From Nemertoderma westbladi (taxonomy: Eukaryota > Animalia > Xenacoelomorpha), in contig JAUCBJ010002599.1 in the NCBI GenBank assembly GCA_032718475.1, forward strand, positions 1 to 49,376: a DNA stretch of 49,376 nucleotides, written 5' to 3'. Below are positions 3,677-45,709 of the stretch, piece after piece (positions within the stretch are counted from its first letter, which is position 1; every line of letters starts with the position of its first letter). The position numbers and the translations under genes are program-made. The notes under the pieces were generated by a model. The model saw nothing but the letters and a program-made list of their open reading frames with translations, had not been told where the DNA came from and did not search any database.

Positions 3677-3739
3677 CAAACCGACAGTGAAACGGACAGA
3701 CAGCCATAGCTCAAGAAGAAATAGAAACAAATTTTAAAG

Positions 3740-11990: not shown

Positions 11991-12105
11991 ACTAGATGTT
12001 AGTAACTATAATTTGTAAGCATCTATGACGCGGTGAAAGCCCATCGTCCTCATTTCGTGTTCGCCGTCGCCCTTCATGTCTCTGATTAGTAAATCCTCCC
12101 CTAAT

Positions 12106-14300
12106 TCATCTAAAAAATAAAGATATAAATGGAAATACAACCCATGGTTCCTTATAACTTTAGACAGAGAACGAGTATATATCGTGAATAAGAGAGGCCC
12201 AAGGACCGACTCTTGAGGTAATCCGTATCTAACTGTTTTTGCTAGGGAGTACGAATTTCCGATTCGAACCTTTTGTGATCTATTCGCAAGATATGACCGA
12301 AACCACTGTAACACATTACCACTAACCGCCAAATCATCCTCCAGTATTTCTAACAACTTATGATGATCAACTGTGTCGAAGGCGGCTGAGAGATCTAGTA
12401 AGACCAATAGAACGGCTGATCCATCATCGATAGCCCTCAGTATATCATAATTTACCTTGAGTAATGCTGATTCTGTCCCATGATTCACACGATATGGCGT
12501 TAGGTACTTGGCAGGATTTCCTCGACTTCTGGAGCCAGTAGGTGGAGTTGCCATCACCCCATCACCATTATTAACATAGTAGTAGAACATAGAACATTGT
12601 CAACCACAATTATGAATAAAAATGGCGCAAGTGTATCTCCCTGGAGGACTCTCCATAACACTTCAAATGGTTCTGTGTCACCATCAACAGTAGTCACAAA
12701 TGTCGCCGAACCATCGTATACTGATCTGATTGCTGCAATAATTTCAGATTCGGAATTTCTGATTTCATTTTTCCCATAATGAAAGTATGCTGAACATACA
12801 TGAGCGAGAGACTCAATCAAAAACTTTGAAGAAGTTAACAAAGATAACAGCAAGCTGCCTGTCTTACTTTTTTGATAACTCATCAATCAAACCGACAGTG
12901 AAACGGACGGACAGCCATAGCTCAAGAAGAAATAGAAACAAATTTTAAAGGTAGGAGTGGATACGGCGCCTGAACTGCTAACACAATAGTGTTTGATGGC
13001 GCAGGTTCGAACCTAACTATAGGCTCTAGAAATTTCGCACTGTTGTGTTAGGCAAGACACTTACTTAGTGCCTACGCCAACCCAGCGGTATAATGGGAAC
13101 ATGGCTTTGCTGAGGGGATAATAATAAATGCGCTTTGAGTATGCCGAGCGTAGAAAAGCGCTAAAATAATAAATAAATAAAAATAATAAATAACCAATAG
13201 TAATATTATTATTTTTAAATAGAATGATGGATTTCAATATCATTTCATACTCCTTTTGTTAATATGCTATTATATGAAATTAGAAGAATTATTTTATTTT
13301 TGCCATTTTCGCCTTCAAATGTATCTAATTTAATTCCATTTTATCATAAACATCGGAAGTGCTACCTCCGATGGCATTCCCGTATCTCACAGAAAGCAAA
13401 GGAAAATTTACGCAAAATATCGATTTCCTGCCGTCTATCTGTCGAAAAGCAATTAAAGTTTGCAAAAATGTTCCCAAAACAATAGAGATATCAGAGGACG
13501 TCCAATGTAAATGTAGATAGCACCACCACCACGTTGTGGCCTTAACCCGCGGTAACAACTAGCCTCTCTGGTAGGAGTTTAATATTTTATCTAATTACAT
13601 TACGCCTCCTTGACGATTTGATTTGGTAGTTTGACAGTTTGATCAATACTGCTGCGAGGTTGCAAATGTACTGATTACAGGTACTGTTACGCACAGTACA
13701 CACATACTTCACGCAGCTACCGACATGAATTAGTCTGAAGGAGCAGCACCCATAAGCAGAAACATATAATAATACGGGGATAAACGCTACGCCTACACCT
13801 ACTCCTATTCCTACTCCTATGGCTACACCTACGGCTACACATACTCCTACGCCTACACATACGGCTACACCTACTCCTATGCCTACACCCATGGCTACAC
13901 ATACCCCTATGCCTACACCTAAGGCTACACATACTCCTACACCTACAAATACGGCTACACATACTCCTATGCCTACACCTAAGGCTACACATACTCCTAC
14001 ACCTACACATACGGCTACACATACTCCTACGCCTACACCTACGCATACGCCTACACCTACACCTACACCTACATCTACACCTACACCTACACCTACACCT
14101 ACGCCTACACCTACACCTACACCTACACTCTTCCACTTCTTTCACTTCCAGTCTCGAGACTCACCATTGCTCAGAATGTGATAAAGTACAGTTAACTGAG
14201 TTAGCTGTATAAATCGAGTGATCCAATTGATTGATATGGTTACTGTTCCTTGGAAATACCGGACATGTCGAAACGTCCCCTTGGAAACGTTTTTCTAAAA
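12106..14300 (+). repeat. Local direct duplication of the block 2892-11691, without element A: L2 piece, RTE piece, SINE, spacer, ACACCT array, P-element remnant
   Basis: 12106-13162 is nearly identical to 2892-3950; 13267-13820 matches 4240-4795; 14125-14300 matches 11242-11691 with internal deletions. Confidence 0.92.
12951..13190 (+). mobile_element. tRNA-derived SINE, copy 2, with A-rich (AAAT)n tail
   Basis: Duplicate of 3740-3951. Confidence 0.7.
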
Positions 14301-15453: not shown

Positions 15454-16677
15454 ATGTCCAAAAATAAAGCGAGTGGATTAGATGAAATCCCAGCGGAGGT
15501 ATGGAAAACCGGAGTGCTAAACAGACCATTATTGAATGTTTGCAACCGGATGTTAAAAGGGGAAAAGCCACCACCAATTTGGACTAAAGGTCAACTAAAG
15601 CCTCTCCCCAAGAAAGGAGACCTCGGCATACCAACAAACTATCGTGGGATCTGTCTGCTTGTGGTAGCTGCCAAAATATACAATAAAATGATTCTATATA
15701 GGATTAGGCCTCACATAGAGAAACTACTGCGTAAGAGCCAAAACGGATTTCGACCAAGTAGATCAACAATAGCTCAGATACTTGCACTACGGAGACTGAT
15801 TGAAGGAATTAAGTCAAAGAATCTCCCCGCAGTCATGACTTTTGTGGACTTCAAGAAGGCATTCGACTCCATCCATAGAGGTAAAATGCTTGAAATCCTA
15901 AGAGCTTATGGAATACCAGAAGTAATTGTTGCTGGCATTGGATTGTTATATTGTGACACAGAAGCGCAGGTACTCTCACCAGATGGTGAAACTGAGTTTT
16001 TCTCAATCCTGGCTGGCGTACTGCAAGGTGACACATTAGCCCCATTACTATTTGTAATTGTGCTGGATTACGCAATGAGGACGGCCACAAAGGGTGAAGA
16101 TCTGGGATTCACACTTCAAGAACGCAGAAGTAGTAGATATCCGGCAACTACAGTCACAGACACCGACTTAGCGGATGACATCGCCCTGCTCTCTAATACG
16201 CTAGCAGATGCACAGCTTCTACTAAATAAAGTGGAGAGGGCTGCTAAGGAGGTTGTATTGCATATAAATGCTACAAAGACCGAATACATGACCTTTAATG
16301 TTGATGGGAACTTGACAACCATTGATAATAATCAACTAAGGAAGGTCGATGACTTCCAGTACCTTGGATCATGGATAGAGAGTAGCAAAAAGGACATAGA
16401 AGTTAGGAAAGCAAAGGCTTGGGTAGCTGTATCAAAAATAGATACCATCTGGAAATCAGATCTCTCCAGGCACTTGAAGACTAAGTTCTTTCGAGCTACA
16501 GTGGAAAGTGTATTTTTATACGGGGGTGAGACCTGGACACTGACTAAATCACTTGAACAACGAATTGATGGTTGCTACACAAGACTACTAAGGGCAGCCC
16601 TAAACATCAGCTGCAGACAACACATGACAAACGCCGAGCTTTATGGTACAATACCACCTGTATCAACCACCCTCCGT
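15454..16677 (+). pseudogene. pol: RTE reverse transcriptase domain; C-terminus continues at 18938-19171
   Basis: NYRGICLL, SQNGFRPSRST, FVDFKKAFDSIHR, GVLQGDTLAP, LADDIALL, FQYLGS. Confidence 0.93.
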
Positions 16678-16713
16678 TGTAGCATCGAATACAGGAATAC
16701 AACGAACGTTCTC

Positions 16714-17098
16714 TCAGTTCCCCATGCATTTCCCTCTCATATTTCTCAACCCAGCCATTTTCTATCCATTTGTTAACCTCAGCATTAAGGAGTTTACTTT
16801 GTGGTTGCCCTATAGTGATGCCATAATCCCCAAGACCAGACCCCAGATGTTTTATCGGAGGGTTTCCCCCTTTCCATGTCCATTTCAATTCCCAATATCG
16901 TTTTTCATTCAGCCATGTAACTACAAAATCTTTCTCAACAAGTTCGACATCTCCATTCACACTTTTAGCAACCTTAATAAATTTACCCAGACGGGGATAC
17001 GGAACAGTATGTCTGGGGGGGAACCATTCAGGTGCATTAACGTTTAACTCACTATTCACACCCCTGATAGACTGCTCATTACGCCCATACACTTCCAC
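16714..17098 (-). pseudogene. pol: pol remnant: linker and start of RT, cut by the deletion
   Basis: EKDF...WELKWTW...EVNKWIENGWVEKY resembles the segment just before RT motif 1 in Gypsy-type elements. Confidence 0.55.
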
Positions 17099-17407
17099 TT
17101 TGTCTCCCCCAGCATCCTGGAAAGCAGCAGAGCAAACACTACTTTGTAATGGTGTTTCAATGAATTCACTATGGAGCCTTCCAAGGCCTGTACTTTACAT
17201 GCAGTTGAAGTTCTACTGGCTGGCTAACACCTGGTGCATTGAATAAAGTACATGACACCATACCAATCAAAGGCCTTTTGTCACCTAAAGTATTTAGAGT
17301 CTAATAATGAGAGTCTAAATCTTACACAATAATCATACTTTACATTATTTCGGTCTAAAAAAACCCTGTGAAATCAATGAATGAGTACAAAATGTATCTA
17401 ATCCCAC

Positions 17408-18420
17408 TCATAAATTACAAACTATTTCATTAAATGACACAGTGGATTGTACTACAGGTAAACATTTATTATACGGGGAGCACCTATAGCTATTTAAAGC
17501 TGAGGTTGCACAGATACCCCCCCTTCGCCAGTTTCCCAAACTCGGCCCATTTACTGTAGGACATTCACGACGCATGTGTCCTCTACCCCCACATCCATAG
17601 CAACGGGCCCATTTCATCGGTCCTGTTAACCCGCCAGTAACAGGCTGAGCTACCGGTGTAACCTGCATACAGTATTTACGTAAATGGCCCACCTGGCCAC
17701 ATCGCCAACACATCAGCCTGTCTCCATTAAAACGTTGTCCCCCTCCACCACGTGTAGGCAGGCGGGTTGAATAGTTCCCAACTCCACGGCTACGATCCGA
17801 ATTTACCATGGCTCCAGCGATTGTAAACCCCTCAGCATCCTCAATTGCTGCTAGAACATTATGAGCCCTAGCAACCAGTTCTGACAACGGTACAGAAACC
17901 CCATCTGCAGCCAAAGACTTTCGAAGCTGTGAAGAAACTTCCACAGGTAAACCCACAATGAATTGACTCTGTAGCATAACATTAGTCGCATCTGAAATCC
18001 CAGCCAAGGATAATAATCACTTTAAGTCGGCTAGGAAGACTTCATATGTTTCACCAGGACGCACAACACGGTTTTTAAACAAATTATAAGCTTGGAAACG
18101 AGTTATTGAAAAAGCCTCACTCAACTTTTGTTTCAAAACAACCCAATCTTCTTGTCATCGGTTGAAAGCTGTTGATATACTGTGAATGCATTGCTCTTGA
18201 GGAACAATGGTGCGAATTTAGCTTTTCTAGCGCCCCAATCCTGTAATTCTGCGATAACTTCGAATTTTTGCGCCCACTCTTCGAAATTTTGGTTGTCCAC
18301 TCCTGTAAATTTATCCAAAACGCCATCCAACTTTACACTCAAATTTCGGGCACTGCTACCGGTACCGGTACCTTCACCTTCACCTCTCGACGTTCCCGTC
18401 ACCTGGCCGTCGTTATCCAT
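17408..18420 (-). pseudogene. gag: Gypsy-type gag with two CCHC zinc knuckles (frameshift and stop)
   Basis: KFTGVDNQNFEEWAQKFE, QFIVGLP, CWRCGQVGHLRKYC, CYGCGGRGHMRREC. Confidence 0.85.
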
Positions 18421-19526
18421 ATATTTAAACCTCAGTCTGGTATGAACTAAACTTTTAAGTACCGCGTCCGTTAAGTATAGGGCCTACAGTGGTAGGCTAG
18501 CGGTGTCAAAATTATGTTACCGGTTGACCAGTAATACAGTAGGCCTAATACTGTAATAGGAAATAAGTAAATGCAGCCTCGCGGTGATAGCTTGTAGCAT
18601 CAAATACAGGAATACAACGAACGTTCTCCCAAACTTCCCAGTCACTTAAATAATTAATATATCTTCGAGCGTCAATGCAATCATTTATTATATATATATG
18701 TAATATAACAATATAAACCAGTATACACAATTAACAATAACCAATTACTGAATCCAAGTAATAAACCTAATCAGTGCAACCCAAGTACCACTCCACTGCC
18801 CTACCGCCTACCAGTACACTTCCACACTCTCTACTAACTATCACTCTCCATCCTTCCTCGCCTTAGGTCCTCACCTACTCCCCGACCTATCGCCCTACTC
18901 TCACCGCACACAATTGCACCCGCCGACCCAACACCGTGAACACAGATTAAGATTCAGTGGGCACTGCTGGCGAAGTAAAGACGAGGTCATACCAGATCTA
19001 CTTCTCTGGCAACCAACTCATGGAAAGCGTAGTCGTGGACGACCGGCCATAACATATATAGATCAACTTGAAAGGGATACTGAGCTTGGGAGAAACGAAA
19101 TTGCGACAACTATGGAGAATCGGGAAGCCTGGAAGGATCTCATTTCCACTGTCCAAGTTCGCTCGACCTAGTAGTAGTAGTATTACTTAATAACACAATG
19201 GTGCAGAATTTACCTCAAATTTGCAATAACATTATTATATTACGCTAAGCTTCGAATTAAAAAGTGAATATTTTAAATAATATTATTATTTTGTTAATTT
19301 ACTGCCTAAAAATACTGTGATAATGCCTCCCACACTTTGTGACTCGGCCATTTGTATACAGACATATACATACATATACAGTATAATGTCTGTATGTAGG
19401 TACAAGCCTACCTGCCTGATACTGCTGTCTGCCTACTGCTGTACTGCTCTGACGGTACCGGTCTGCCGGTACTGCAGCAGTGTGGTAGGTCCATAAAAAA
19501 ATGAAATTGAAATAAATGTAGACTCA

Positions 19527-20373: not shown

Positions 20374-20401
20374 TCAGATAGAGGTGCGGGGCATAACGAT
20401 C

Positions 20402-20840
20402 TGAAAACTTAACACTTTGTTCATGGAATGTTGATGGTCTGAAAAATAAACTAGAAGATAGAAATGTTCTTTCATATTTATGTAGTTACGATATAGTATG
20501 GCTATTAGAAACTAAAACTGCGTGGCGAATAAATGTCCCTGGTTTCATGTGCTACTCAAATCCGTCGGCGGCGGAACATCGTGGTGGGATTGCTGTCTTG
20601 ATCCGCTCGAGTTTGAATCATTTAGTTAAACGGATAAACTGTTCAACAAAGGGCCAGATTTGGTTAGAACTGTCAAGTATGCCTGCTGGGGTGGTGCTCG
20701 GGGGATGTTATATCCCACCGAGTGATTCTCTGTACTTTGAACCATCTCTTTTTGCGATGTTGGAAAGTAGGATGGTACAGAATCATTGTATAGTTCTAGG
20801 GGACTTTAATGCGAGAGTAGGGCAGCCACAATTCGGGGTA
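20402..20840 (+). pseudogene. LINE ORF2 AP-endonuclease, N-terminal part
   Basis: SWNVDGL, LLETK, GGIAVLIR, CYIPP, LGDFNARVG. Confidence 0.9.
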
Positions 20841-21369
20841 TGTTAGCTTATTCAATCCCGCTAACACCCCATAAAGTTAAGCCGATAAGCAATATTGGGA
20901 GCCACGAGATTGGGTAATCAACCAACTCGTGCCACCCCAATAAGAATGGGAAGGAGAAGCACACAATTAGGGTCAGGGGCCAAACCCCTAACCCAGAGAG
21001 AACAGGTGGAGTGAACGGGAACACTCCAAAGGGCGCCAACAAGGGTATCAACCAATCAGAGGGGGGAAAGGCATCGATTAGGTAGAGTAACAAGGCCAAC
21101 CGTGCAATATAGCCAGTTGGCAGTAATCATTCCATTCAGTTATCTCAGTATCATATTGGTGCTAGTTAGGTTAGATAGTTTAGCTAGGGAAGGACCAGGA
21201 CTTTAGTTACCGTATCCTGCCTTCCGTGTACGACAATCCATATCTATATCTATATCTTTATACCGGCTATTATATACAACGAACGACACGAACTCATTTA
21301 CTTTCACACATGGCGGGGACGCGTGAACTAACACCGGATAAACCGGGATCCTTCCTGGATCCCGTCATA
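20841..21369 (+). repeat. 5' LTR of element B
   Basis: TGTTAG...CCCGTCATA (CA terminus mutated to TA relative to the 3' LTR). Confidence 0.95.
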
Positions 21370-21538
21370 GTAACTAAATCAACTGCTGCCCTAGCTGAAC
21401 ACAGTAACTAAAACCAACTGCTGCCCTAGCTAAACTCAGCAACCAAACCCTTCGATAGCTAGTTAAATCGGAGCCGCCGCCCTAGATAAACTCAGCGACT
21501 ACTATCGACTACCAGCCACCAATTTAGAGACAAAGGAG

Positions 21539-24500
21539 ATGAGTCGGTCAGGTGAGACAACGCCGACGCGGACCCCGGACGAAGAATTAATGATCCGCGA
21601 GGCCACAACCAGGCGGTACAGACCCACAACGCCGGACCCATCGATAACGGGTCATCCGGCAGTTCAGGATGAGGGGGGCCGCCTGGAACCCGAGGTCGAG
21701 CCGAGAGGAGGAGAGAGCGAGGCGGAAGGAGACGGAGACGAGTCGACACGAGACACGGATGTCGGTATCGATGTCGCCGGCCAGCCACAGGCCGAAGGCG
21801 ACGAGCGGCCCACCGAAACGGCGATGGTGGGGCCGACGGTACGACGCCGGACCCGAAGAGACGGAGGAGATGTCGGTACCGATGTCGCCGGCCAGCCACA
21901 GGCCGAGGGCGACGAGCGGCCCACCGAAACGGCGACGGTGGGGCCGACGGTACAACGCCGGACCCGGAGAGACGGAAGAGAGGTCGGCGACGAGGACGTC
22001 GGGGTTTCTGAGCGACTTCGACAGGCCTACAACGCGACCCGGAGACTACTAGAGGAGGCCAGAAAAGGGGCGAAGATAGACGAGGTGAGACTGAGGAAAC
22101 GACTAGGTGAGTCGAATAAACACTTTAATTATCTAATGCGCTTCGGGCAAAGAGAACTGGCAAAGGAGAGAGCGAGAGGGGTTGCCGAGGAACTGTATGA
22201 CTTGTGGCGGTGTAGGGGTATGGAACCTAGCGTAGTGTACGTAGGGCCATACTTAGTCGATGCCCGGGGATTAAAATTAGTGGGTTGGGAGAGACCTGAA
22301 GGGGGCGAATCCGAGGTTAACCCCGAGGATTCGGCCTCGTCGGTCGGAAGAAGTTCCGGGATGCGGGGGAAAGTCAGTAGGTCGGGAAGGCGGAGGGAGT
22401 CCGTCGTAACCGATAAGTCTGCTACATCCTCCACGAAAGAAAGACTGGTGAGAGAGATAGGTGCCGCGTACCGTCTCGAGCTGATAGAGCAAGGTCAGAG
22501 GGAAATGGATAAACAGCTGGAGGAGGGGAGAATGAGGCTGGAGAGGAAAACGGCATTGATTAGAGAAACCGGAGAGAGGGCCGAAAGGGCTTTGAGAAGC
22601 CTTAGGGAGTGTGAGGAAATAGAAGAAAAGGAGTGTAGGGAACGTGAGGCGAGAGAGGAAAAGGAACGTAAGGAACGTGAGGCGAGAGAGGAAAAGGAAC
22701 GTAAGGAACGTGAGGCGAGAGAGGAAAAGGAACGTAAGGAATGTGAGGCGAAAGAGGAAAAGGAACGCAAAGAGCGTGAAGCGGAGCGTAAGGAGCGTGA
22801 GGCGAGAAGGGAAAGTGAACGCAAGGAGCGTGAAGCGAGGCGAAGGGAGAGCACTAGGAGAGTAGCAGAGTTGGCTGACCAGGACGCGCGGGAGTGTGAG
22901 AGGAGAATGGCAGAAGCTGAGCGAGAGCAAAAGGAATTAGAGAGACGCCAAAGTGAGCTTGCGGAACATAGGATTAGACGCACGCACGAGCTGCAACTGG
23001 TGCGGGCGGGGGCGTCTGAGAGCGGGACTGGCTCGAATATTTTAGGGGAGCCGGGAGCCGTGGATGCATTTATTAACACCCCACTTACAGGGACCGCACG
23101 ACAGACCCAAAACTGGTGTGACCGTACGGGTGGGGGAGGTAATAATGATAATGCTACAGTAGACATTGTTAATATTAATGGTACCGTATGGGATAACTCT
23201 AACCAAACCTTTATTGCAGCAAATAATACTCTACCTAGTAGCAGTAATTTAAATTTAAATACAAATAATAATAATTCAAATAATTTAAATAATGATCCAA
23301 GCCCGAATTTACAAAATATTTCAAATAATTTAAATAATGATCCAAGCCCGAATTTACAAAATATTTCAAATAATTTAAATAATGATCCAAGCCCGAATTT
23401 ACAAAATAATTCAAATGATTTTGTTTCAAACGAACAAATTAATTCCGTTTCCGATATGGGTGCTATTAACGTAAACACGTCGGGCGTATATGGCCAGACA
23501 GACGGAGGCCTGGTAGGCCGTATAGTTGGTAGGCAGGGAGTGACTGGGTTGGGTAGACCCAGTGAGGGCCTGGTAGGCCACGTAGTTCGTAGGCAGGGAG
23601 TGACTGGGTTGGGTAGACCCAGTGAGGGCCTGGTAGGCCACGTAATTGATAGGCAGGGAGTGACTGGGTCGGGTAGACCCAGCGAGGGCCTGGTAGGCCA
23701 CGTAGTTGGTAGGCAGGGAGTAGAGGGCCTGGTAGGCCACGTGATAGCAGAGGGAGAGGCGGGGGTGAATAGACCCGACCGCGGCAGGGTTGATGTGTCC
23801 ACTAGAGAGGGATATAGTAGCGGGGTGAGGGATAACGAAGTTAGATGTGGCGAGTGGGGGGGGCTATAGGGGCCCCACAACAGCGAGTTAGCGGCGAAAG
23901 GGGGGGGGCAGAGAGTGTCCCACAGCCGTCAGCGGATAATGCGCGGGCCAAAATAGGTAAACCGCAACACCCGGCGACGGAGAGCAATAGGGGGATTGCG
24001 AGTATCCCCGGCGGCGTGCGACCGAGCAGAGAGAGACAGGTTGACGTCGTAAGAGGGTGGACGAAGCATCGAGCCCGATCAGAAGAGGGAAGAAGAACAG
24101 TGGGGTTTAACCGGGAGGTTGACGAGAGATCTCACGAGCGGGAACACCCCACTGAAAGGAGAAGAAGAGAAGACAATAGTAGGAGTATCGCCGCGAACGA
24201 TAGAAGAACGAGGACGGATAGCGAGCCGTCGGTAGTCGAGATGAGAACAGAGAGTCAGTGGGGTCGGACTCCGGGAGATTGCCGTCACCCCGGAGAGATG
24301 CGACCTGGTGAGGTGCATTACGCGCCGATGGAGGGGTACGCGATGTACCGGTACGAAGACGAGAACAGTAGAGAGGGGGGTCGAAGAGAAACTTTCCGAC
24401 GGAATATACCTACCGATCGAGAGTATGGTAGCCACGGGGAGGACTATTCGAGAAGAATAAACTTCGATCCCGAGCGACACATGCAGACTGTAGGACATAC

Positions 24501-27479
24501 TGTAGGCCTTACTGCACATACCATAGGCCATACTGAGAGAGGCAATGTAGGGGATAGGATGGCGCGGACAATGGGATTAAACCCGGAAGTAGCGGAATAC
24601 ATACCGACGAGTAGGCCAGAAGTTGATAGGCCTATACCGGTACCAGTACAGCAGTATGACTACAGCATGCAGGGACATAACATATACCCAGGGGAGGGGG
24701 GAATTATTGCGGATAGGTGTATGGGCCCCAATATATTAACATCAACCCCAATACCAAACATACCGGTGGGGGGGGGGGGGCAGGGTGACATTCCCCCATC
24801 ACAATATCAACAATATACCCCGATAGGAGCAAGAACAACGAGACCCTTGGATGAAAATAGGTCGTGTGACACAGAAATATGGAGGGGGCCGCTACCCCCG
24901 ATGACATACCCAAGTCAAAGAAAGTCAAGAAATAGGACGGACGGACCGCACCAGACAGGAGAAACCATACAGCATCCATCGAATCCATTGGAAGCGCAGG
25001 CGATGGGGATGGCCACGTTGATCGATGCGTTAAAAACGAGGATCGAGTTACCACCCGTGGAACCATTCAAATTCGATGGGAGTAGGCCGGAAGAATATCT
25101 ACAGTTTCGGCGCATGTATAGTAACGAAATACTAACAAAAAACTTGACACAGGCGGAGTGCCTAAAGTATCTGCAAGTATACACAGGAGGCCCAGCATAC
25201 GATATCGTGAGGCAATATCAAGGAATAGAGGGCGGGTCACGACAGCATGGCGGGCACTGGATAGGGAATACGGGCACCCGACCAAGATCATCAGGCAGAC
25301 GCTGAGATGCATAACATCGGGTGGCCTACAGGATAATCCCGTTAGCATTAAGACGTTCGCTAACAAAGTCGAAAAGGCGCTAATCGTGCTGAAGACGCTA
25401 GACGCGCCATACGAGCTCAATGCGTCCAATAACATCACCACGATAGCGCAGGCACTACCGAACTGGCTGGGCAATAAGTGGAGGAAGATTGCTTTCTCCA
25501 CTCGAGACAAGAAGGGTGCGGAACCGGGTTTGGAAGAAATGTCAAGCTTCTTAAACTATGAGGCTGAACTAATAACTGACCCAGTCTATAGCGAAGATAG
25601 CCTGGGAAAGGGACCGAAGACGGATTACCATAGACCGAAACCAGAGCGCAATACATCAAACGCATTACCGAGGCTCAGGCAATCATTGCCATATGCAGCG
25701 ACGCAGGGGACTACAAGTCCACAGCTAGCCGAAGATAAGACAACACCATGGAACGGACAGGGGAACAATAACAACACGAATAAACATAACCCCAGTACGT
25801 CCAGTAGGCAGAATCCAAACAATAAGAATATTAGGGACTTTGGTACAAACGCAACTGCGATACGCAATGCACTGTATAAAGAGGGCTACGACCCAAAGAG
25901 CAAATGCCAGCTACACGCAAATGCGCTTCATCAAACCATGAACTGCAGGTACTGGCAGGCGCTGCCTAGGCAAGATCAGATAGATTATACGTCGAGCAAT
26001 AAAATCTGCTCGCGATATGTGATGAGTGGGCATAGAGCAAGGGAATGCAAGGAGAAGCTGATCAAATTTGGTCAGAGGAGAGGCCAAACGATGGCGACGA
26101 GCACAGTAGGGGCGAAGAAGAGAGGAACGGTGTTACTTGGAGTAGTACCCGTGCGAGTGATCGGGGAAGGCAATCGATCAGTAACAACACTAATGCTGGT
26201 TGATAGTGGAGCTGCCTTCACATTAGTCGAGGAATGGGTGGACGAAGAGATAGGATTGAGAACGAGGCCAAGCAGAATGGCGGTAACAACCATCTCTAGC
26301 AAAGATGAGATTCTGGAGATGAGAACAGGACGGTGCGCAATTGCAGCAGTGGCACCGGGATGCGACTATGGGGCAACCATCAACCCCATCCAAGTGATAG
26401 AGTCAATTAATATCAATGCCAGGCGGCCAACTAACATCGAGGTCGAGCAATATAAATTCCTGGACGACATTGACTTCTCAATCCCAGATGTGGACGTTAG
26501 GAAGGTATCCATCATAGTAGGAATGGATTGCCCAACGGCCCACGAAAGAATGCAAACGGTCTTCGGCGAAGACAAGCAGTGTGACCCGGTGGCGATATTA
26601 ACACCATTCGGGTGGACACTGACAGGCCCAATTAAGAGTAATATACCATTCCATGTGTCTGAGAGTTCAGGATGCATGGTGCCAGGAACTGTCGACGAGA
26701 TAGAGGAGAGGCCAGAGATGGGCAATAGTGGTAGACAGCTAGAAGTGGAAGCAACACCAAGAGAGTGGGCGGAGGAGAATGGCATGGATGCAGAAGATCT
26801 AGAGACGATGGGTTGGAACAAGAGTCCCAGCAAGCATCGGTATGGAGATGGAGAGGAGCGGACGGCAAAATGTCCGGGGGACAGGCCGGAGGAGTGTCCG
26901 GAAGATATGCCGGTCCGGTTGGGAGGCATGCCGACAAGGGGGAGGCCGAGCGGGAGGACAAGATGGAAAGGGAGAAGATTTGAGACGACCAGACCAGGGG
27001 CAGAGAAGCCCGTGGGTGGGCGTGTGATGGACAAAGGAGCCGGGAAAGTAGGAGGCGTGCTGCATACGCACGCGGGACTGACAGGGTGTGAGGGGGCATT
27101 ATATGGGCAGAGATTGTGTATACCGAAGGACGAACGGGGGTCGTCGAGGCCTTTAATGCCAGCACACATATTAAGGGGGAGGCCAGAAGAGGTGGCATCC
27201 AAGATTAAGGAGAAGAACAGGGGCGGCATTATACCGCCGGGCGACACGTTGAAGGGTGGCACTTTGCCGCCAAGGGACGACCACGAGATCAGAAACATAA
27301 ATAACAGACAGCATTTCCAAAGACAGGAGAAAAGGCCACCAGAATTGACAAGGAGAGTGGAGCGAAGAATTAGAGGACCTGTGGGGTGGCAGTGGGAGAG
27401 TTGCCTGCTGGAGGAATCACCCCTTGGGTCGCTGAGTTGTCCAATAGGTTGGACTGGGATGAAAGAGTTAGATCCGTAA
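21539..27479 (+). pseudogene. gag: BEL/Pao gag-protease polyprotein in three overlapping frames (shifts near 23860 and 25230)
   Basis: PEDSASSVG plus coiled coil; LPPVEPFKFDGSRPEEYLQF...LKYLQVYTGGPA and AWRALDREYGHP (DUF1759-type gag); degenerate Cys/His knuckles; aspartic protease LVDSGAAFTLV, IIVGMD, AILTPFGWTLTGP. Confidence 0.88.
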
Positions 27480-27637
27480 AAAGTGCGGGCAGAGGTGTTA
27501 CCTGTCTGTTAGAAGGAGCACCTCAGCGGAGTTAGAGAAGAGTTTAGTCGTCCAAGTTTTGGACTGAGGGGGGTGGGATTGAGGGCGAGACGCCCTTCCC
27601 ACACAAAAAAATAAAATAAAAAATAAATAAAATAATA

Positions 27638-28170
27638 GTACGTAGTAGGTACGCAGTTAGTAGGCAGAAGTTAGTCAGTAAGAAGGTACGTAGTACCTAG
27701 AGTTAGTTAGTTAAGAGGTACGTAGTACCTAGAGTTAGTTAGTCAGTTAGTTAGTCAGTAAGAGGGTACGTAGTACCGTCAGTTAGTTAGTTAGTTAGGA
27801 GGTACGTAGTACCTAGAGATAGTTAGAGAGTTAGAGGGTACGTAGTACCGTTAAGTAGAGAGTTAGAGGGTACGTAGTACCGTTAAATAGAGAGTTAGAG
27901 GGTACGTAGTACCGCTAGTTAGAGAAGAGTTAGAGGGTACATAGTACCGTTAGTTAGAGAAGAGTTAGAGGGTACATAGTACCGTTAGTTAGTTAGAGAG
28001 TTAGAGGGTACGTAGTACCGCTAGTTAGTTAGAGAGTTAGAGGGTACGTAGTACCGCTAGTTAGTTAGAGAGTTAGAGGGTACGTAGTACCGCTAGTTAG
28101 CTAGAGAGTTAGAGGGTACGTAGTACCGCTTAGAGAGTTAGAGGGTACGTAGTACCGTTAGTTAGAGAGA
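27638..28170. repeat. Tandem array of ~14 GGTAC-(G/A)TA-GTACC mini-palindromes separated by (AGTT)n/AGAG spacers, 28-48 bp period
   Basis: Directly visible between gag-protease and the exonuclease ORF. Confidence 0.93.
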
Positions 28171-28193
28171 GAGAGAGTAAGAGGTAAAAGGGG

Positions 28194-28200
28194 TATATAA
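28194..28200 (+). promoter_or_regulatory. Candidate internal TATA box upstream of the exonuclease ORF
   Basis: TATATAA immediately after the tandem array; function not shown. Confidence 0.3.
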
Positions 28201-28655
28201 GATATAGATATTAGTTAGCAGTTAGTAGCGAGAGGGGGGCATATGAGTACAGCTGGGTAAATCGTGTGGCCACACGACGCATACTGCTGTACTGCACAGG
28301 CCCACAGAGTAGGCCGGAATGTGGATTAGAGAATAGAACAATCCATAGGCAATAGTAAGTAGTAGGACAGTAGAATTAAAATTAAATTAAAAATAAATAG
28401 AATAGGGCTGAAAGTTACAAAGTAATGGCAACACTAGGAAAGTTATTCTAGAATATAATAAAAGTAACGGACAGAAATTGTAAATTAAGCTCATTTACTA
28501 GCTTCAGGATTAATTAGTAATAATTTAGGCTAAAAGGCGCAGTTAAGTAAGAAATAGGCCATTATCGGACAGTACAGAACATCCTAGATACATCACTCAT
28601 CTGTATTGCGCCTTGGTAAGGCACCACCTTGCAGGTGAGCGAGTGAGTGTTCGGA

Positions 28656-31202
28656 ATGGCGAACAAGTTGATCAGAAAGAGAAAGGCGGAGTCAGGAGGA
28701 AAGGAGATACTGGTGGATTTCACCGAGAGGCATCCGGAAGAGAAGACGAGAGGATACTACGAGAGGTTGGAAAGGGGTCACGCGGCACGAGCGCTGCAGG
28801 ATCACTTCCGGGAGATGCACAAACAGCGGCTGGTCGGGACCTATGGGACGCCGTCGCTGGACAACGCGATCTTCCAACACTCCCACTACGTGGTAAAAGG
28901 GGACGAGGCGAAGTTCGGGATTCCGAAGTACCCGAGGGAATCACCGAGGAAGGACTGGAAGAGATTCATAGAGTCCGTCAAAAGAGGAGGATATATGGTC
29001 CTAGACGACGAGGGAACCGTGGAAGACGAGGCGGGTTCGAGACGAGGAACGGCGGGGTCGGCCAGGACCATACTCCTACATTTGGCCGCGCCAAATGGGG
29101 ACATCTTCTTATTCGATCTAGGAATGTATGGGAAGAAGGACGGGCCGAAATTAAACCGGTTACCGAAAGCGGTACAAGTCTTGGTAAGAGAGAAGTCGAC
29201 GACGAAAGTGGGATCGGCGATTCGCGAGGATGCGGAGAGAATCATCGGTCCGGACACCACCAACCTCCTGGATATGCAGAAGGTCTTTATGGCTATGACG
29301 GCACCGGATGGGTTGGGGGTAGTCGAAAACACAGGCTAATGCGGGGCGGTGGCAATGGGCCAATTATTGGGGCTCGTGTGCCACAAACCGATGGATTGGG
29401 GGAAGTTCAGGGAAGAATACGGAGCAGAACTAGCGAACTCGCTAAAGTGGGGAGCGAGACCGGGAAAGCAGGAGGTATATCAATTCCGCAGGGGAGCGAT
29501 AAAGGTATATCAGAAGTGATATATCCTGCAGGAGGACTGGATGATGATAAGTTTGCTTAACTTATTCATGACCGTGGTTATCGAGAGGGAACCAGGGGCA
29601 TTTCTGTTATCGGGATCACCCCTAAGCTACAGGAGAGCCTTTAAAGTGGCCTTCGACGGTCTGGTAGACCACCCGGGGCTGAAGGGCGAGTCGGTGTACT
29701 ACAACAGCCGGCATCTGGTAGACGGGGAGACAGATACGCCGTATCAGAGATGGGAGCAGCTAGAAACGGATAGACGAGAAGCAAAGCGACTGGAAGAAGT
29801 CGCCAGACGGGAGAGGATAGAAGCAGAGGAGAGGGAAGAGGAGGCCAGGACACAGAGTTACGGCTTCGAGGAACAGGCAGGCTTAGACGAGCTTCATTGG
29901 ACTTCGTCAGGGAGTTCGGGGGAGTCTCTAGGGCGAGAACTGGGATGGACGGTGGGGTCACCGAAACAGTCGACGTCGGGGTTGCAAGCGATGCCCATAC
30001 CAGCGGGCGCCGAAGGCGACCAACCGCCAAGGAAGCTAAGGGAGTTAGAGGGATGGAGAGCTACTGGCGAGAGCCAAGGCGGGAAGGGACAAAGTGGATC
30101 CATCGGGATACCGGGGTTGGAGTCACTGCCAGAGGAGGAGGACGACGACGACGAGTTCGGAGAGATGCCGCCCATCGAGAGGATAGGCCACTCGGACACG
30201 GACTGGGTTGGCGGAAGGGTGGTGACGGCCAGTGGGGCGAGGGCCTTCTGGAACAGATCCGGCAAGCGGACCTGGGTGCACGAGGAGCCGGCGATGGATT
30301 TCGCGGGGAGCACTATCAGGTTGGGCGAACAACCAGGGACGGCACCACGGATAGTATTCGGGGAGACGATGCCCGAGAGGGGCGGAGAGATCGACGTAGA
30401 TAGAGACACCAACATGGAGAAATTCGCTTACCAGCGACTCCACAGACCGCGGAGATCGCTTGGGACGAAAGACGACGTGGGACGGGAGACATTGGTACTC
30501 GGCTGCGACTACTGTGGGAGACAGACCCACCAGGAAAGGAGCTGCTTGTACCGGTTCCAGAAGGGAACCTTTTGTCTCTACTGCCGAGAACCAAGTCACA
30601 GGATGGGGGCGTGTCCACGGTTGCATAACTGATGTCCAAAGTGCCACTTTCGGGGACACTACGGACGCCAGTGCGACTGGATGGACGACGAAGAGAAGTT
30701 CAGGAGATTCGAGGAGTGGGCCGACGTCGGGGCCATGACGCGTCAGCGCATGAAGGCCCAGGAGTTCAAGTGGGGTTTCTTCCTTATCAATCAGGAGGCT
30801 CACATGGAAATCATAAAGCGGAGGCTACCGTTTACCTATCAAGAGGTAGCAACGGCGGCGTCGTATGCCGGAGTAATGAACACACAAAGATATTTGGACA
30901 GGTGGACGCCACAGAACCGAGGGGAGTTTAGGGATTTCTTGGCGGAGCACGTACCGCAAGCAATGAAGATGATCCTATGGGACGCCACCAGAGGGAGACA
31001 ACAGGGCCACTCTGAGGGGCCACCGGCGAAGCGATATCGGGCACTAATAACACCAGCACCCAAGGAGCCAACAACCGGAATCAGCAGGGAGGTGGCGGCG
31101 AAAGTCCGAAAGCAGAAAGCGGATCCCAGAGGAACGGTGGTAACCAAGAAACGACCCAGGGAAGAGGACGCCAGGGGGAACTATCCCCAGAGGAACAGAT
31201 AG
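28656..31202 (+). pseudogene. DEDD 3'-5' exonuclease (WRN/EXD/Mut-7-like) plus coiled coil plus three CCHC zinc knuckles; 848 codons with three premature stops
   Basis: ExoI MVLDDEG, LLHLAAPNGDIFLFDL, LPKAVQVLVREKSTTKVGSAIRED (ExoII), LLDMQ, ExoIII-like SLKWG...QKxYILQED; CDYCGRQTHQERSC, CLYCREPSHRMGAC, CPKCHFRGHYGRQC. One reading frame; stops at 29337, 29517 and 30630 are sense codons in copy C. Confidence 0.8.
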
Positions 31203-31916
31203 GTTCCCAGGGCCGAGGGAGAGAAACTGGGACTTGGACGTGGTACGCCTGGAAGGCGCCGCATGGGACGTACGAACTATTAGGTACAAATTTAATTAAT
31301 GCAAATAATCATATAAGTGCAATTTGTATGTACGTACGTAGTAATTAGTAATCTACAAATACATACATTCGGAGTAAGTACCATAGTCATACAACCTTTC
31401 TCAATTAGCTACTGGGACTGGGGGGGAAACTGACTATGGCACTATGGACGAGACACGAGACAATTTCACACTTCTTGAGTGCGACGGCACAAGAGGGGGG
31501 GGGAGATTCGTCAGGAGGGATGAGGTAGTCAAAGTGGGGTTGAGGGACGGAGTAATAGTGCGAAGTGCGGAGAGAGTGCGGACGCAATTCTAGTGTGTGG
31601 GGGGGGGAGAATAAGAGGCTGAGTGAGGGACGAGGAGGCCAGAGTGTATGAGAGAGTTAGGGTGAGAGTGGAGAAGAGATAGGGCGAAAGTGTTGGGGAA
31701 ACAAAAGTTGCGTGAGAGGTGAGCGCGATCGGCCCGACATGGGACGCCAGGCATAAAGGGTAGTGTTATCATGCCCATAGGGAGCGGCCTGGAAAGCCGG
31801 CTCCGAGAGAAAAGAATTCCACCCCACACCCGATACTAGATCGGGATCCAGCGGGATTGTAGCGCACTTTTTTGGTTGATGCTATCTTCTTACCGGGAAG
31901 ATAACATGGGGGGGAG

Positions 31917-32445
31917 TGTTAGCTTATTCAATCCCGCTAACACCCCATAAAGTTAAGCCGATAAGCAATATTGGGAGCCACGAGATTGGGTAATCAACCA
32001 ACTCGTGCCACCCCAATAAGAATGGGAAGGAGAAGCACACAATGAGGGTCAGGGGCCAAACCCCTAACCCAGAGAGAACAGGTGGAGTGAACGGGAACAC
32101 TCCAAAGGGCGCCAACAAGGGTATCAACCAATCAGAGGGGGGAAAGGCATCGATTAGGTAGAGTAACAAGGCCAACCGTGCAATATAGCCAGTTGGCAGT
32201 AATCATTCCATTCAGTTATCTCAGTATCATATTGGTGCTAGTTAGGTTAGATAGTTTAGCTAGGGAAGGACCGGGACTTTAGTTACCGTATCCCGCCTTC
32301 CGTGTACGACAATCCATATCTATATCTATATCTTTATACCAGCTATTATATACAACGAACGACACGAACTCATTTACTTTCACACACGGCGGGGACGCGT
32401 GAACTAACACCGGATAAACCGGGATCCTTCCTGGATCCCGTCACA
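31917..32445 (+). repeat. 3' LTR of element B
   Basis: TGTTAG...GTCACA, preceded by the PPT, followed by the TSD. Confidence 0.95.
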
Positions 32446-32510
32446 GGGTACAATTTCAGTATAGAAGGAGCCAATGATCAAACAGTAAACTCGAACGGTC
32501 GGACACTTAA

Positions 32511-34086
32511 CCCTATTAGTACCGGGCTATAAAATGTTGTACAAATACCAGGGGGGGGTCATATTGACCCCCCCCCCCTCTAAAATCTACAAATTTTTAC
32601 GAAAACGTCTGATTTTTTTGTTTGTACGTAGGTATCACTAGTCTGGAACAGACCAAAAAAAAAAGTTTCTAAAAAATGTACTGCGGTGGTTATATTGCAG
32701 CACCAAAATTACAAGTAGTGCACAATTTTCACAAAATTTGAAAGTAACATTTTTCGGCAAATTGTTTTTCAATACAGGTTTTCTGGGGCGCAAAATACAT
32801 TGGAAAATATTTAAAAATGATATGATTACTATAAATGGCTGTTTAGTCCTCTCTGCGTAGGAAAAATATGAAAAAAACAAGTAACCAGCACTTTTCAGTT
32901 AGAACACAAAATTTTTAATTCACTTATGAGATGCTATAAATTTACATTTTCAGGTTTTCTGGGGCGCTGATTCTATTGGAATACATTTCTAATATGCCAG
33001 ATCATTGCTACTTGTATTTTTCGGCGTAATTTGGCAAATTTTGGGGCTAGCACCAAATTTCGTACCCATCACCAAAAAGTACAAGTTTGCGATGTTCAGA
33101 GTTGTTTTTATTGATTCCATCGGATTCAGGACCCTCATAAACCCGTATAACGCAAGAAACAAGATGATACTATCTACTGATCAATTTGCTTATTTTCCAA
33201 AATTTGGTGCTGGCACAACAATTTTCACCCACCGGCGAAAAATATAAGTTTGAAAATTCTTATGAAATTTTTACTGATTCCATTGAATTCAGAACCCTGA
33301 CAAACCCGTATAACGCAAGAAACAAGGTGACACAATCAATTGATATATTTGATGGTTTTCAAAATTTGGTGCTAGCACCACATTTTGCACTCACGAAAAA
33401 TAACTCACCGAAAAATACAAGTTTGAGATGTCTAGTTTGATAATTATATACTCCATTGTATTCAGAACAGCCATGCCATAAACCTCTAAAACGCAAGAAA
33501 TAAATTGTGACAAGCAATTTTATATATTGAATGGGTTTTCAAAATTTCGTGCTAGCACCAAAATTTGCACACAGCATCGAAAAATACAAGTTTATTACGT
33601 TTGGTGCAACTCTTATATATTTCATCGAAACCAGAACCCCAAAAAACCCCAATTGCGTACAAAACAAGTTTCTAACAATCAATTTACAAAATTAACATAT
33701 TTCAAAATTTGTTGCTGGCACCAAAATTTGGCACCCGCCGAAAAAAACAAGTATGAAATTTCTAAATCAATTTATATGAATTCCATCCAATTACTAACAC
33801 CAAAAAACCGGTGTAAATCAAAAATAGAGATGTTACAGTTCATATTTAATGAAATGTAATTTTCAAAAACGTCTCAAAAAAAGTGCCAAAAGTAGGGTTA
33901 AAAAATGGTGCTATAACTTGAAAACTACCCAATATTTTTGAAAACGGCTATCACTACTAGGAAGACAATAGGTTTTTAGGAAAAGTCATAAAATTTCAGA
34001 TTCCCAACTGCGTTTGTTTCAGAATTATACTAAAAAAAACCCGGGGGGGGGGTCATATTGACCCCTCCCCCCCGGGTTTAATAGGT
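32511..34086. mobile_element. Complete non-autonomous piggyBac-like element (1576 bp), copy 2
   Basis: TTAA at 32507-32510 and 34087-34090; termini CCCTATTA...TAATAGGT; removing it restores the LINE APE frame VNSNGRTL|KGICLARQHMVANNL. Confidence 0.92.
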
Positions 34087-34090
34087 TTAA

Positions 34091-35619
34091 AGGAATTTGT
34101 TTAGCCAGACAGCACATGGTCGCAAACAACCTTACAGTTGAATCATTGGGCGTTAAACTGTATGGAAATCTAACATTTAGGAAAGGTCGAACCTGGGTGT
34201 CAGATATAGATTTGTGTATTGTGCACAGAGAACTCTTTAACACGCTGGACGCGCTTGATATACACCAGGATCAAAAGGTATCAAATCACTCTCCATTGTC
34301 AATCTCTACAGGGATGTTAATGAGTGCTAGTTGGGATTCTCTATATGAAAGGGCTAAGAACCTAGGTGCACATATTCATGACCAACCTCCTCAGGGGGCA
34401 CAAACAAGCTCGGATGCACTATCTAAAGAATTAGCGGTCACTCTGTGGATCTGAGTTCATTTACACAGTGCTTGGAGTTAACCAACCCGCCAAATATTAG
34501 TAACCAAAACTGCTGTCTCCGTGAAATAGAAGGGGAATGTGACGACGCATTTAATTTAATAGATGGCGCTGCTAGGAAATGTATAATGAAATATTTAAAG
34601 TAATAAATATATTACGAGGATATCGTCTTGACGAGATGGGAACGGCTGCTTGAGATCGATGATCCAAAATTAATCTGGGGGGCAGTGGGATGGAAAGGCG
34701 AGATCCGACAGGACACAATCGACAAAGTGTCACAGCCGTCTGATGAAAATTTTAAGATCCATTTTGAACATCTTCTCAACCCACAGCCGACAGACACAAG
34801 CGATTTAGCCTTAAATGCAGCGAATGGTGATATATATGTACCTGTGTTAGATGACCCTTTCTCCCTTAAACCGAACAAATCGTATATAGGAATATCCCCT
34901 GCTGTATTCTTAGCACTTCCTGGGAAATGGTTAATATTTTTTCTATCTATTTTTTGTTGTGTATTTCGGGGAGCGTGGTGTCCGCTGGTTTGGGCCTTTA
35001 GTAAATTAGTAACAATATTCAAAACTGGAAATAAAATGTTCTGTAATAACTAGTTAGTGTGATGGAAACCATAGCAAAAGTCTACGATAATATGCTTATA
35101 AATTCGAGATTACTTAAGTGGTGCAATATCAGTAAATGCCAGGCGGGGGGGCAGAAAAACCGGGGATGTTTGGAACAAATCTTAGCGTTACGTTTATTGA
35201 TAGATTTAACAGTGTTTAAAAAAGTTAAACTGTTTGTGTTATTCGTAGATTTTAGTAAAGCATACGACCGCGTTCCGCGAGGTAAACTTTTAGAAGAATT
35301 GCAATTATTGGGGTGCGGTTCTATAATGTTACGAGCCCTTAAGGCGCTATACATAAATACAAAATCTGTTTTAAGAACGGCGTATATTATTACTTCAGTA
35401 GGAGTCCGCCAGGGGCGCCAACCAGCGTCACCCTTTTTTGCATATACCTCAATCGTTTAGTTACAATGATTTTCGGTGCTTACCGTACGGATGGATTCCT
35501 AGGTGTAGTACAGATATTGCTATTAATGGACGACACCGTTTTACTTGCCACTACTCGTGAGCAATGTATCGATAAATTAACAATAATGTTGGAGTACTGT
35601 AATCAATATGGTATGCAAG
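34091..35619 (+). pseudogene. pol: Host LINE ORF2: end of APE and RT domain with LMDD catalytic motif
   Basis: SDIDLCIV, SNHSPL, QAGGQKNRGCLEQI, FVDFSKAYDRVPR, GVRQG, LLLMDDTVLLAT. Confidence 0.88.
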
Positions 35620-37164
35620 ATAGATTTATTTATACATTATGTAAAAACAATAACAAATACACCAAACAATGTACCGGTATAAAGGTATTGTCCAACATAA
35701 CATATAGGATTACCCCTAAAGCTTTGCAGCTTATTTCCAAGGGGGTCCTTTATGTTACTTGGTTACAAATACAATATTACACTACGCTAACCTAAAACCA
35801 ATATAAAACGTAATTACACTATGTACATGTACAACTTTACCGAGAGCGTGACAATGCCCGACTCAACGATAAAGATGTAATGTACAGAACAATTTATTAT
35901 AAAACGTAATTACAGTATAAATAGTAAATAATTAATAAACTAATAACTTACTGTAGGACTATTGTACCTATTTTTACATTGCACACGGAGATGAGATTTA
36001 ACTGCAGATTTAAAAGAATGTTGATTATTTAGGTTTTTAATTTCATTAGGCAGAGCGTTCCAATTTTTTATGCCGTTAAAAAAGAAAGTATCAGATTCAA
36101 AGGATTTACAATTCGGGAGGTAGAAGTTTGAAGCACTAGCTCTGGTACTGTAAGAGTGTGTATCGCGTACTCTGTTGAATTGTTGTTTTAGGTAATTGGG
36201 ACATTTACCATTATACACTTTATGCACATGGTTAATGCGTAGCTGCTTAACTCTACTATCTAAGTCAAGTAGTCCAGATTCAGAAAAGTCATCTGGAGTT
36301 AGGTGGTGCCTAGGTTTGTAGTCTTTAATAAATCGTACTACTTTATTCTGAGCTACTTGTAATTTACATTTAAGCTGTTTGGTTAAGCCTTCATACCAAG
36401 AAGAGCACGCATAGTCCATGTGACACTGTATTAAAGAAGAGCAAAGTAACTTGCGGGAGTCGGTGTTTAAACTATTTTTATTTCTGTATAGAAACCTAAG
36501 CCTACTGTTAACTTTCGAGAAAATATTTTTCACTGTACTTTCTCCTGATAAGCAGTTATCCAATGTGGCGCCTAAATATTTAACTTCCTTTTTATTTTCA
36601 ATCTTATGTCCATTACTAGTGACTTCAAACTTAGTTACCTTCTTTAACTTTCTTTTGGAACCAAATAAAATACTTTTAGTCTTACCGTAGTGAATGGATA
36701 GCTTATTATCAACCAACCACTCATTACAGGATTCTAGAACTGCACTTAACTTTTGGGAAATATGGATAGGATCTTTATGAGAGAAAATAAGAGCACTGTC
36801 GTCGGCATATAAAATGAGTTTAAAATCGGGATCTATACTACTTATCATATCATTTACATAGCATACAAAAAGCAGAGGACCTAATATACTACCTTGCGGT
36901 ACACCACAGGTAATCTCTTGTACAGTAGACAGCGATTTGCTAATGACTACAGTTTGACCTCTGTCTGACAGGTAGGACTTGAACCAGTCTATAGAACCTA
37001 CACCCATCAGGCCTAACTTACCAAGCAGAATTTCGTGATCTACAGTATCGAAAGCCTTTTGTAGGTCCAACATTACCATACCAGTATATAAACCCTTTGC
37101 GTTATTACATCTAATTGTATCAGTTAAGTTAATAAGGCAGGTGTCTGTAGAATATGATTAAGTA
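35620..37164 (-). mobile_element. 5'-truncated L2/CR1-group (Crack-like) LINE with an open RT/C-terminal ORF (35940-37079)
   Basis: 8-bp TSD TATGCAAG (35612-35619, 37165-37172); [31 protein letters not shown]; removing it restores host QYGMQ|VNQKKT. Confidence 0.93.
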
Positions 37165-45124: not shown

Positions 45125-45709
45125 TGTGACGGGATCCGAGAATCCCGATTTATCCCGGTGGTTGTCTTATCTACGCGTCCCCGCCGTGTGTGTGAAAAGA
45201 GTTCTGATGTTGAGAGTTACTCTGACTATTGTTGAACGATATGTATAGATGTAGAATATAATCGGATAAAGTATAAGCATAAGTGAATGAATAAGTACCG
45301 GTAAAATAGCTGAATGATGATGGTGGCAGTGGACGGTGATAAGAGTTTCCGTTCTGCCCTAACTAACTGACTAACTAAAGTGAATGAAATGACACAGCAA
45401 CTGGTAATATATTGCACTGGTTGGCCGTATTACATTACTCAGTGGATGCCTTCCCCCCATTGGCTAATAACTCACTTCTCCCCCTCCCATCTCTCTGGGA
45501 GTGTTTCCCCCTGCTGCTATCACCCTCTCCCTCCCGGAGGTGTAACCTCTGACCCCTGCTGTGTGTGTGTGTCCCTTTGGGGTTTGTCGCCCCGTTTATT
45601 GGGGTGATACGAGGTTGATTGGCAATCAACCTCGTACTCCCAATATTGCTTAAAGCTCCAGCTTGGCCAACTTTGTGTGGGATGGTTTGCGGAATTGAAT
45701 ATGCTAACA
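45125..45709 (-). repeat. 3' LTR of element C (585 bp)
   Basis: Same termini as the B LTR; interior only patchily alignable. Confidence 0.9.

Follow-up and report, generated by a model that had tools for sequence, protein, structure and literature searches.

A pol-less BEL/Pao-derived retrotransposon copy of Nemertoderma westbladi encodes a predicted DEDDy-type exonuclease with three zinc knuckles

The bdelloid rotifer long terminal repeat (LTR) retrotransposons Juno and Vesta, and the rotifer Terminons, carry a third open reading frame (ORF3) that encodes a DEDDy exonuclease (Rodriguez et al. 2017, PMC5408684; PMC6431247). Captured third genes are also present in the BEL/Pao elements roo, Tas, Cer7, and Anakin, where they encode glycoproteins (PMC7642597), and non-autonomous elements with gag only are also known. 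Here, we describe an LTR element, copy B, at positions 20841-32445 of a 49,376-nucleotide contig of the xenacoelomorph Nemertoderma westbladi (JAUCBJ010002599.1), the whole of which is called the window. Copy B has a BEL/Pao-like gag and protease, no recognizable pol, and a third ORF that encodes a predicted DEDDy-type nuclease and three Cys-Cys-His-Cys (CCHC) zinc knuckles. A second and diverged copy, copy C, is represented by its 3' part at 45125-49376 of the minus strand, where the window end cuts it; all features of copy B given below are on the plus strand.

The third ORF of copy B resembles that of Juno, Vesta, and the Terminons in being RNase D-like, in occupying the place of env, and in keeping its catalytic residues. 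However, the Juno and Vesta families encode full pol, which copy B lacks, and the rotifer motif is given as DEED, whereas it is D-E-D-E here; a triple knuckle is not among the ORF3 features described in the passages of PMC5408684 considered. A preliminary description of this locus had named DEDDy ORFs in some Ty3/Gypsy elements of nematodes and bdelloid rotifers; the rotifer precedent is correct, but PMC5408684 contains neither the word "nematode" nor the word BEL. No BEL/Pao element bearing a DEDDy ORF turned up in the literature search, although Repbase, Dfam, GyDB, and article supplements, which lay outside it, may catalogue the layout. Passages of PMC6431247, PMC12440569, PMC6338049, PMC13269885, PMC3118150, and PMC12451622 add no such element. 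For the rotifer nuclease cargo, neither a function nor clear signs of selection have been described; here, a gene of this kind is carried by another superfamily, has been under strong purifying selection, and includes a putative RNA-binding module.

Copy B is a complete LTR element. Its 5' LTR (20841-21369) and 3' LTR (31917-32445) are both 529 bp long and differ by six mismatches, a 5-bp target-site duplication with the same letters on both sides (20836-20840 and 32446-32450) flanks the element, and a G-rich polypurine tract of nine bases (31908-31916) precedes the 3' LTR, all in agreement with the preliminary description. The 3' LTR has the ends TG..CA; the 5' LTR departs from them at its second-last base. 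Since the LTRs differ by 1.1%, the insertion is fairly young. Copy B sits within the endonuclease ORF of a long interspersed nuclear element (LINE; PF03372, expectation value E 2e-9), and the split of this ORF by the insertion confirms the element ends. Despite its youth, the copy is broken: gag has two frame breaks, and the third ORF contains three stops.

BEL/Pao elements (Belpaoviridae) are characterized by LTRs of 0.2-1.2 kb, a target duplication, and a polypurine tract, all of which copy B has. It also shares with them a DUF1759-like gag, a protease, and an extra gene past the pol position, the gag matches being below threshold. The set is completed by reverse transcriptase (RT), followed by RNase H and then integrase; these are missing here, and copy B is therefore a BEL/Pao derivative and not a full member. 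It further differs from BEL/Pao elements, which are 4.2-10 kb long (PMC8742986), in its length of 11.6 kb, in having no transfer RNA (tRNA)-Arg/Gly primer site, and in that its extra gene encodes a predicted nuclease and not a glycoprotein.

The gag ORF (21539-25481) is composed of a long low-complexity N-terminal part, a coiled coil, and a DUF1759-like capsid region (25072-25481). One frame break lies near 23850-23870 and the other near 25235. The sequences flanking the latter match positions 1-50 and 58-139 of the 148 of PF03564 (DUF1759), which we take to be a BEL/Pao marker; the matches are collinear (E 0.009 and 0.006), and both fall under the curated cut-off. DUF1758 is not matched by copy B. 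A degenerate gag Cys-His (nucleocapsid) region follows at 25893-26072, seen in the sequence and as a zf-CCHC match of E 0.12. The aspartic protease (26148-26630; PF13650, E 3e-5) has its DSG motif at 26202, and 18 of the 21 differences listed for it among the copies (among 40 of 118 rows) are at third codon positions. The collinear sub-threshold DUF1759 halves and the PF13650 match bear out the assignment of gag and protease to BEL/Pao, which had been proposed from the sequence; a word-seeded protein search with gag-protease found nothing.

The third ORF (28656-31202) has 848 codons, with in-frame stops at 29337, 29517, and 30630. It is built of a DEDDy 3'-5' exonuclease domain (28950-29561), a long coiled-coil-like helix (29739-29903), and a region with three CCHC knuckles and a conserved C-terminal helical module (30492-30854), to which a profile made from relatives only matches with E 1e-30. 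A candidate splice acceptor (28620-28634), inferred from the sequence, ends 21 bases before the ORF, and its AG context is conserved between the two copies. The motifs LDDEG (ExoI), KVGSAIRED (ExoII), and YILQED (ExoIII) and the three knuckles are where the preliminary description had placed them, in an ORF of the length it gave; the variant ExoIII, which it gave as YILQED rather than YxxxD, aligns as Y-x3-E, a form common to the relatives P0004 and P0006. D117, E119, D192, Y289, and E293 are present in both window copies. Compared with the DEDDy set of D-x-E in ExoI, D in ExoII, and Y-x3-D in ExoIII, D117, E119, D192, and Y289 are in place, and the fourth acid is Glu293, at a position that is acidic in 10 of the 12 aligned relatives.

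That the third ORF adopts a DEDDy fold of the DnaQ-RNase D type is close to certain. A profile built from the 12 relatives alone finds the two window copies with E 4e-20 and 1e-18, compared with E 8 for the best reversed control. The best profile match is RNase D of Trypanosoma brucei (E 2.1e-7), with both domains in the same order; EXD2 is matched with E 6.9e-6 when the window rows are included and 2.6e-5 with the relatives-only profile. Atlas places the nuclease domain with PF01612 clusters (0.92). A structure model of copy C, built on 36 sequences, has a mean predicted local distance difference test score (pLDDT) of 61 and a disordered linker. It aligns to the exonuclease domain of Nibbler with Z 13.3 and a root-mean-square deviation (rmsd) of 3.5 over 194 positions, and to WRN with Z 12.7 and an rmsd of 3.0 over 163. 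Among the 50 VIA rows listed, it matches DnaQ-type nuclease domains only. The long helix comprises residues 338-392 of the model, with a block pLDDT of 79-97 over most of its length. Profile search and structure prediction, both proposed in the preliminary description as checks, thus recover a DnaQ-type fold; they uphold its placement of the protein in the RNase D/WRN/EXD/Mut-7 group, and its succession of a coiled coil and three knuckles.

The exonuclease domains of EXD2, WRN, and Nibbler/Mut-7 have the same fold as the third ORF at 11-14% identity. Since the Z values of Nibbler and WRN are tied with those of NrnC-like enzymes, the domain is not assignable to a DEDDy subfamily. Pfam and NCBIfam do not recognize the nuclease in the window copies, a search of solved structures with a single nuclease sequence gave 0 matches, and a single-sequence model of the nuclease (mean pLDDT 34) was unusable. 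Word-seeded protein searches with the nuclease and with alignment A1 found nothing, and plasmid and phage searches returned chance matches only. Pfam matches to BRINP and CpXC were rejected as noise from the cysteine pattern. The enzyme is likely to be active in unbroken copies.

The nearest analogue is T. brucei RNase D (PDB 7c42/7c45), in which a DEDDy domain is likewise followed by CCHC fingers, which raise both RNA binding and cleavage (PMC7797062). The trypanosome protein is a cellular trimmer of guide RNAs with four fingers near the nuclease, whereas in the third ORF about 300 residues of helix and linker separate the two domains, and a further conserved module follows the knuckles. The common layout may be convergent.

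A search of 1.84 billion representatives returned 33 proteins (clusters) at E<=0.001, with the best-matching stretch in the knuckle region for 32 of them and in the nuclease for one. The same exonuclease-plus-knuckle layout is present in 11 of the 33, all of them among the 13 proteins whose knuckle motif is preceded by 300 or more residues (leave-one-out; 0 of 33 reversed sequences in the control). All five catalytic positions are kept in 6 of the 12 aligned relatives, and PF01612 appears in two of the 33. None of the 30 relatives that were looked up has a functional name. The family is unnamed and spread over many unrelated samples. One relative, P0002, combines a degenerate nuclease with two knuckle modules. 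In the P0029 cluster, five near-identical members, distributed over several contigs 15-37 kb long, have the knuckle module but no nuclease domain, which fits a repeat-borne gene.

Over 796 codons, the third ORFs of copies B and C differ by 0.067 nonsynonymous (dN) and 0.606 synonymous (dS) substitutions per site, giving a dN/dS of 0.11. By part, dN/dS is 0.10 in the nuclease, 0.21 in the linker, 0.07 in the knuckles, and 0.04 in the module after them. In the read data, 17 of the 18 differences listed for the third ORF (among 40 of 1473 rows) are at third positions, two rows at the stops of copy B being left out of this count. The third ORF has evolved under strong purifying selection, and the low dN/dS and the third-position bias together indicate that it was kept up in the family.

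Copy C consists of a spacer, third ORF, tract, and LTR, and is 82% identical to copy B over 3.8 kb. Its third ORF (48961-46393) is interrupted by a frame break near 48890 and a single stop (46755-46753). Its LTR (45709-45125) is far more diverged, with 59% of the alignment columns the same as in copy B. The last 60-65 bases of the LTR (21305-21369, 32381-32445, and 45190-45125), which include a terminal hairpin, are far better kept between B and C than the remaining LTR.

Between the protease and the spacer of copy B there are only about 850 bases. The region in place of pol (26631-27532) is open to 27479, about 280 codons after the protease, is multi-copy, and has no relevant Pfam or Atlas match. 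When all six frames of the whole copy B were searched for protein families, with stops read as X, only two protease families appeared at E<=1, and a motif scan of copy B revealed no RT or integrase motif in context. The claim that RT, RNase H, and an integrase core are missing thus holds for copy B. Only 6 of the 18 differences listed for the pol-position frame (among 40 of 118 rows) are at third positions, which fits a decaying remnant, and the region is probably what is left of pol. Two short motifs (27153-27179 and 27458-27481) resemble what we take to be the end of a BEL integrase; a decayed integrase end was considered and set aside, with Pfam and Atlas giving it no support. Past the pol position, a block of 45 bases (27546-27591) has the top depth of the region (278 thousand in run X1, 153 thousand in X3); it includes a short inverted repeat and is possibly a cis signal common to several families. 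Non-coding tandem arrays (a 36-bp unit repeated 12.4 times, and related units) fill 27638-28173.

Parts of the element are present in five of the six listed sequencing runs. Four runs were mapped onto the element, and three onto the junction of the protease and the pol-less region. The read data are short contigs, none of which spans the whole pol-less region, and their summed depth is not a copy number. Together, contigs with differences of up to about 15% extend over the entire pol-less region in X1 and X3 and over part of it in X5; single contigs reach depths of 163-1054 (some 675-1054), compared with 6-30 for the shallowest, in three studies. The region is therefore repeated and old. The preliminary description had allowed for a one-off deletion in copy B; the many diverged copies in three studies argue against it, and a multi-copy pol-less subfamily probably exists. 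The wider claim of a pol-less family fares less well, as only about one-tenth of the protease depth carries on, and it is doubtful that the family as a whole is without pol. Copy B's own subfamily may be wholly pol-less, with the wider family differing. The depth of an empty-site joint (45-122) was dropped as a single-copy yardstick, the target being a repeated LINE. The depth of the third ORF, 14-73 thousand, is above that of the pol-less region. Joints in X1-X3 skip 555-750 bases at the end of the third ORF (30474-31226; depth 160-420), so shortened variants of this ORF exist.

Belpaoviridae have an 18-base tRNA-Arg or tRNA-Gly primer site past the 5' LTR (PMC8742986). Copy B lacks this site, a point that the preliminary description did not mention: no TGG-type site follows 21369, host tRNAs not being part of the comparison. 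In its place, the leader (21370-21449) is a 35-bp unit repeated 2.4 times from the LTR boundary, and a segment inside the LTR (21177-21210) is complementary to it, a candidate self-primer or leader stem. The first nine bases of the leader pair exactly with 21202-21210 (reached in 16 of 2000 shuffles), which sets the 3' end of the LTR-derived strand against the LTR boundary, the geometry of a primer. An adjoining exact LTR-leader pair of 13 bases was reached in 0 of 2000 shuffles. The duplex has an energy of -32.5 kcal/mol (region fold z -2.76), and the diverged LTR of copy C still pairs with the leader of copy B at -23.1 kcal/mol. In Tf1 and Tj1, sequence right past the 5' LTR is likewise complementary to an LTR-internal segment (PMC4600332), and copy B has this arrangement with the 3' end at the boundary; however, these elements belong to a different superfamily and use the 5' end of the transcript as the primer. 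Self-priming is a possible role of the pairing, as read from the letters, and the structure offers a way to examine tRNA-independent priming in BEL/Pao elements.

We tentatively favor, at a little under even chances, the explanation that copy B is one of many pol-less BEL/Pao elements that borrow RT and integrase, and that its third gene, the DEDDy nuclease with three knuckles, blunts small-RNA silencing. Gag and protease would build and mature the particle, their established role in Ortervirales, and Pol would be supplied in trans, probably by a relative in which the nuclease gene is present as well. The third ORF would be read from a spliced subgenomic RNA with its acceptor at 28634, the knuckles would bind single-stranded RNA for the nuclease in the manner of trypanosome RNase D, and the nuclease would trim RNA 3' ends. 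A segment of the element's own RNA would serve as the primer of reverse transcription. The role against small RNAs, taken by itself, is plausible but short of probable; we favor it because the retention of the gene where Pol is borrowed is best accounted for by a cell-level benefit. Several observations weigh against this explanation. The depth of the pol-less region is 3.5-6.7 thousand in X1, X2, and X3, 9- to 16-fold under that of the protease (41-93 thousand), so that about nine-tenths of the protease depth stops before the next 850 bases of copy B, and three long contigs (one in X3, two in X5) depart from copy B at 26621-26651 with 240-813 unaligned letters. Most relatives thus differ past the protease and may carry pol, and autonomous relatives bearing this nuclease may form the majority; an autonomous partner did not appear, a whole-genome search not being part of the work. 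Copy B's third ORF has three stops, and copy C's 5' part, hence its pol state, is beyond the window, so the selection may predate the loss of pol. One or more catalytic residues are missing in 6 of the 12 aligned relatives, or these are cut short. Metagenome, genome, and viral contigs yielded no locus for any of the relatives, which are known as proteins and may or may not lie in retroelements. The Foldseek list is topped by Egalitarian, which we take to be non-catalytic. In the rotifer study, DEDDy ORFs had no clear link to copy number (PMC5408684).

Alternatively, the nuclease may be the ordinary third gene of an autonomous gag-pol-ORF3 family, with copy B in a deleted minority, the gene a passenger, and the selection inherited from autonomous ancestors; this has a substantial chance of being right, although we do not lean towards it. 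It accounts for the roughly tenfold drop in depth past the protease where the long contigs diverge, for the third-ORF depth of 44-73 thousand in X1 compared with about 6 thousand in the pol-less region, for the lack of a third-position bias in that region, for the three stops, and for the two integrase-like motifs. Yet variable stretches of gag fall to 2.7-14 thousand, like the pol-less region, so sequence divergence would be enough to account for the drop; the pol-less region is old and repeated in its own right, and no pol sequence linked to the family was seen. What separates this reading from the silencing explanation is solely whether the gene benefits pol-less copies. The nuclease could instead act on the element's own RNA, trimming the LTR-derived strand, after a cut, to the edge of the LTR-leader duplex, so that the primer would end beside the LTR boundary, or trimming the genomic 3' end. 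Both this role and the account built on it are less likely than not to be correct by a clear distance, though they fit the missing tRNA-type site, the 9- and 13-nucleotide pairs with primer geometry, the pairing retained with copy C's LTR, and the 3'-end processing proposed for rotifer ORF3 (PMC5408684); set against them are the inexact 9-nucleotide match in copy C's LTR, the self-priming of Tf1 with the RNase H of its RT (PMC4600332), and a helper that could supply such a step. Binding without cutting is improbable, and so is its fuller form, in which the protein is mainly an RNA-binding scaffold for export, localization, or packaging with a weak or dead nuclease fold. The ExoIII Glu in place of Asp, the relatives that keep the knuckle module without catalytic residues, the selection that is strongest directly past the knuckles, and the presence of Egalitarian and Exd1 among the fold matches speak for it; the full acidic set and Tyr in both window copies and in 6 of the 12 relatives speak against it, as does the recurrence of the Glu variant in otherwise complete relatives. 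A recently captured host nuclease gene, decaying as cargo, is very improbable and already largely refuted: both copies have stops or frame breaks and DEDDy genes are common in hosts, but dN/dS is 0.11 at a dS of 0.6 between two element-borne copies, depth is high across the third ORF in all four runs, and the closest relatives lack names and are not annotated as host genes. We speculate, with little weight placed on it, that copy B belongs to a long-lived, self-priming, pol-less BEL/Pao lineage that has kept just gag, protease, and a dedicated nuclease-knuckle gene, whose product would trim PIWI-interacting or small interfering RNAs as a counter-silencing enzyme and may repay the helper that lends Pol, the family of 33 clusters being the same device in other hosts. 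The protein of the third ORF offers a tangible starting point for asking if retrotransposons of animals make their own anti-silencing or RNA-processing enzymes.

Other repeats surround the element in the window. The LINE split by copy B occupies 20397-20840 and 32451-35795, with its RT at about 35050-35620, and is seemingly interrupted by a further insertion at about 32510-34060. A broken gag of another LTR element lies on the minus strand at 16600-18500 and has two zinc knuckles (PF00098, E 2e-7) and an RT-like start. A long Ser/Pro-rich ORF (7215-9658) with a coiled coil and many short repeats has no Pfam match and by eye resembles another gag N-terminus. Long tandem arrays based on a hexamer (4560-6150 and 13590-14210) are located within a duplicated segment (about 2500-6100 and 12000-14200).

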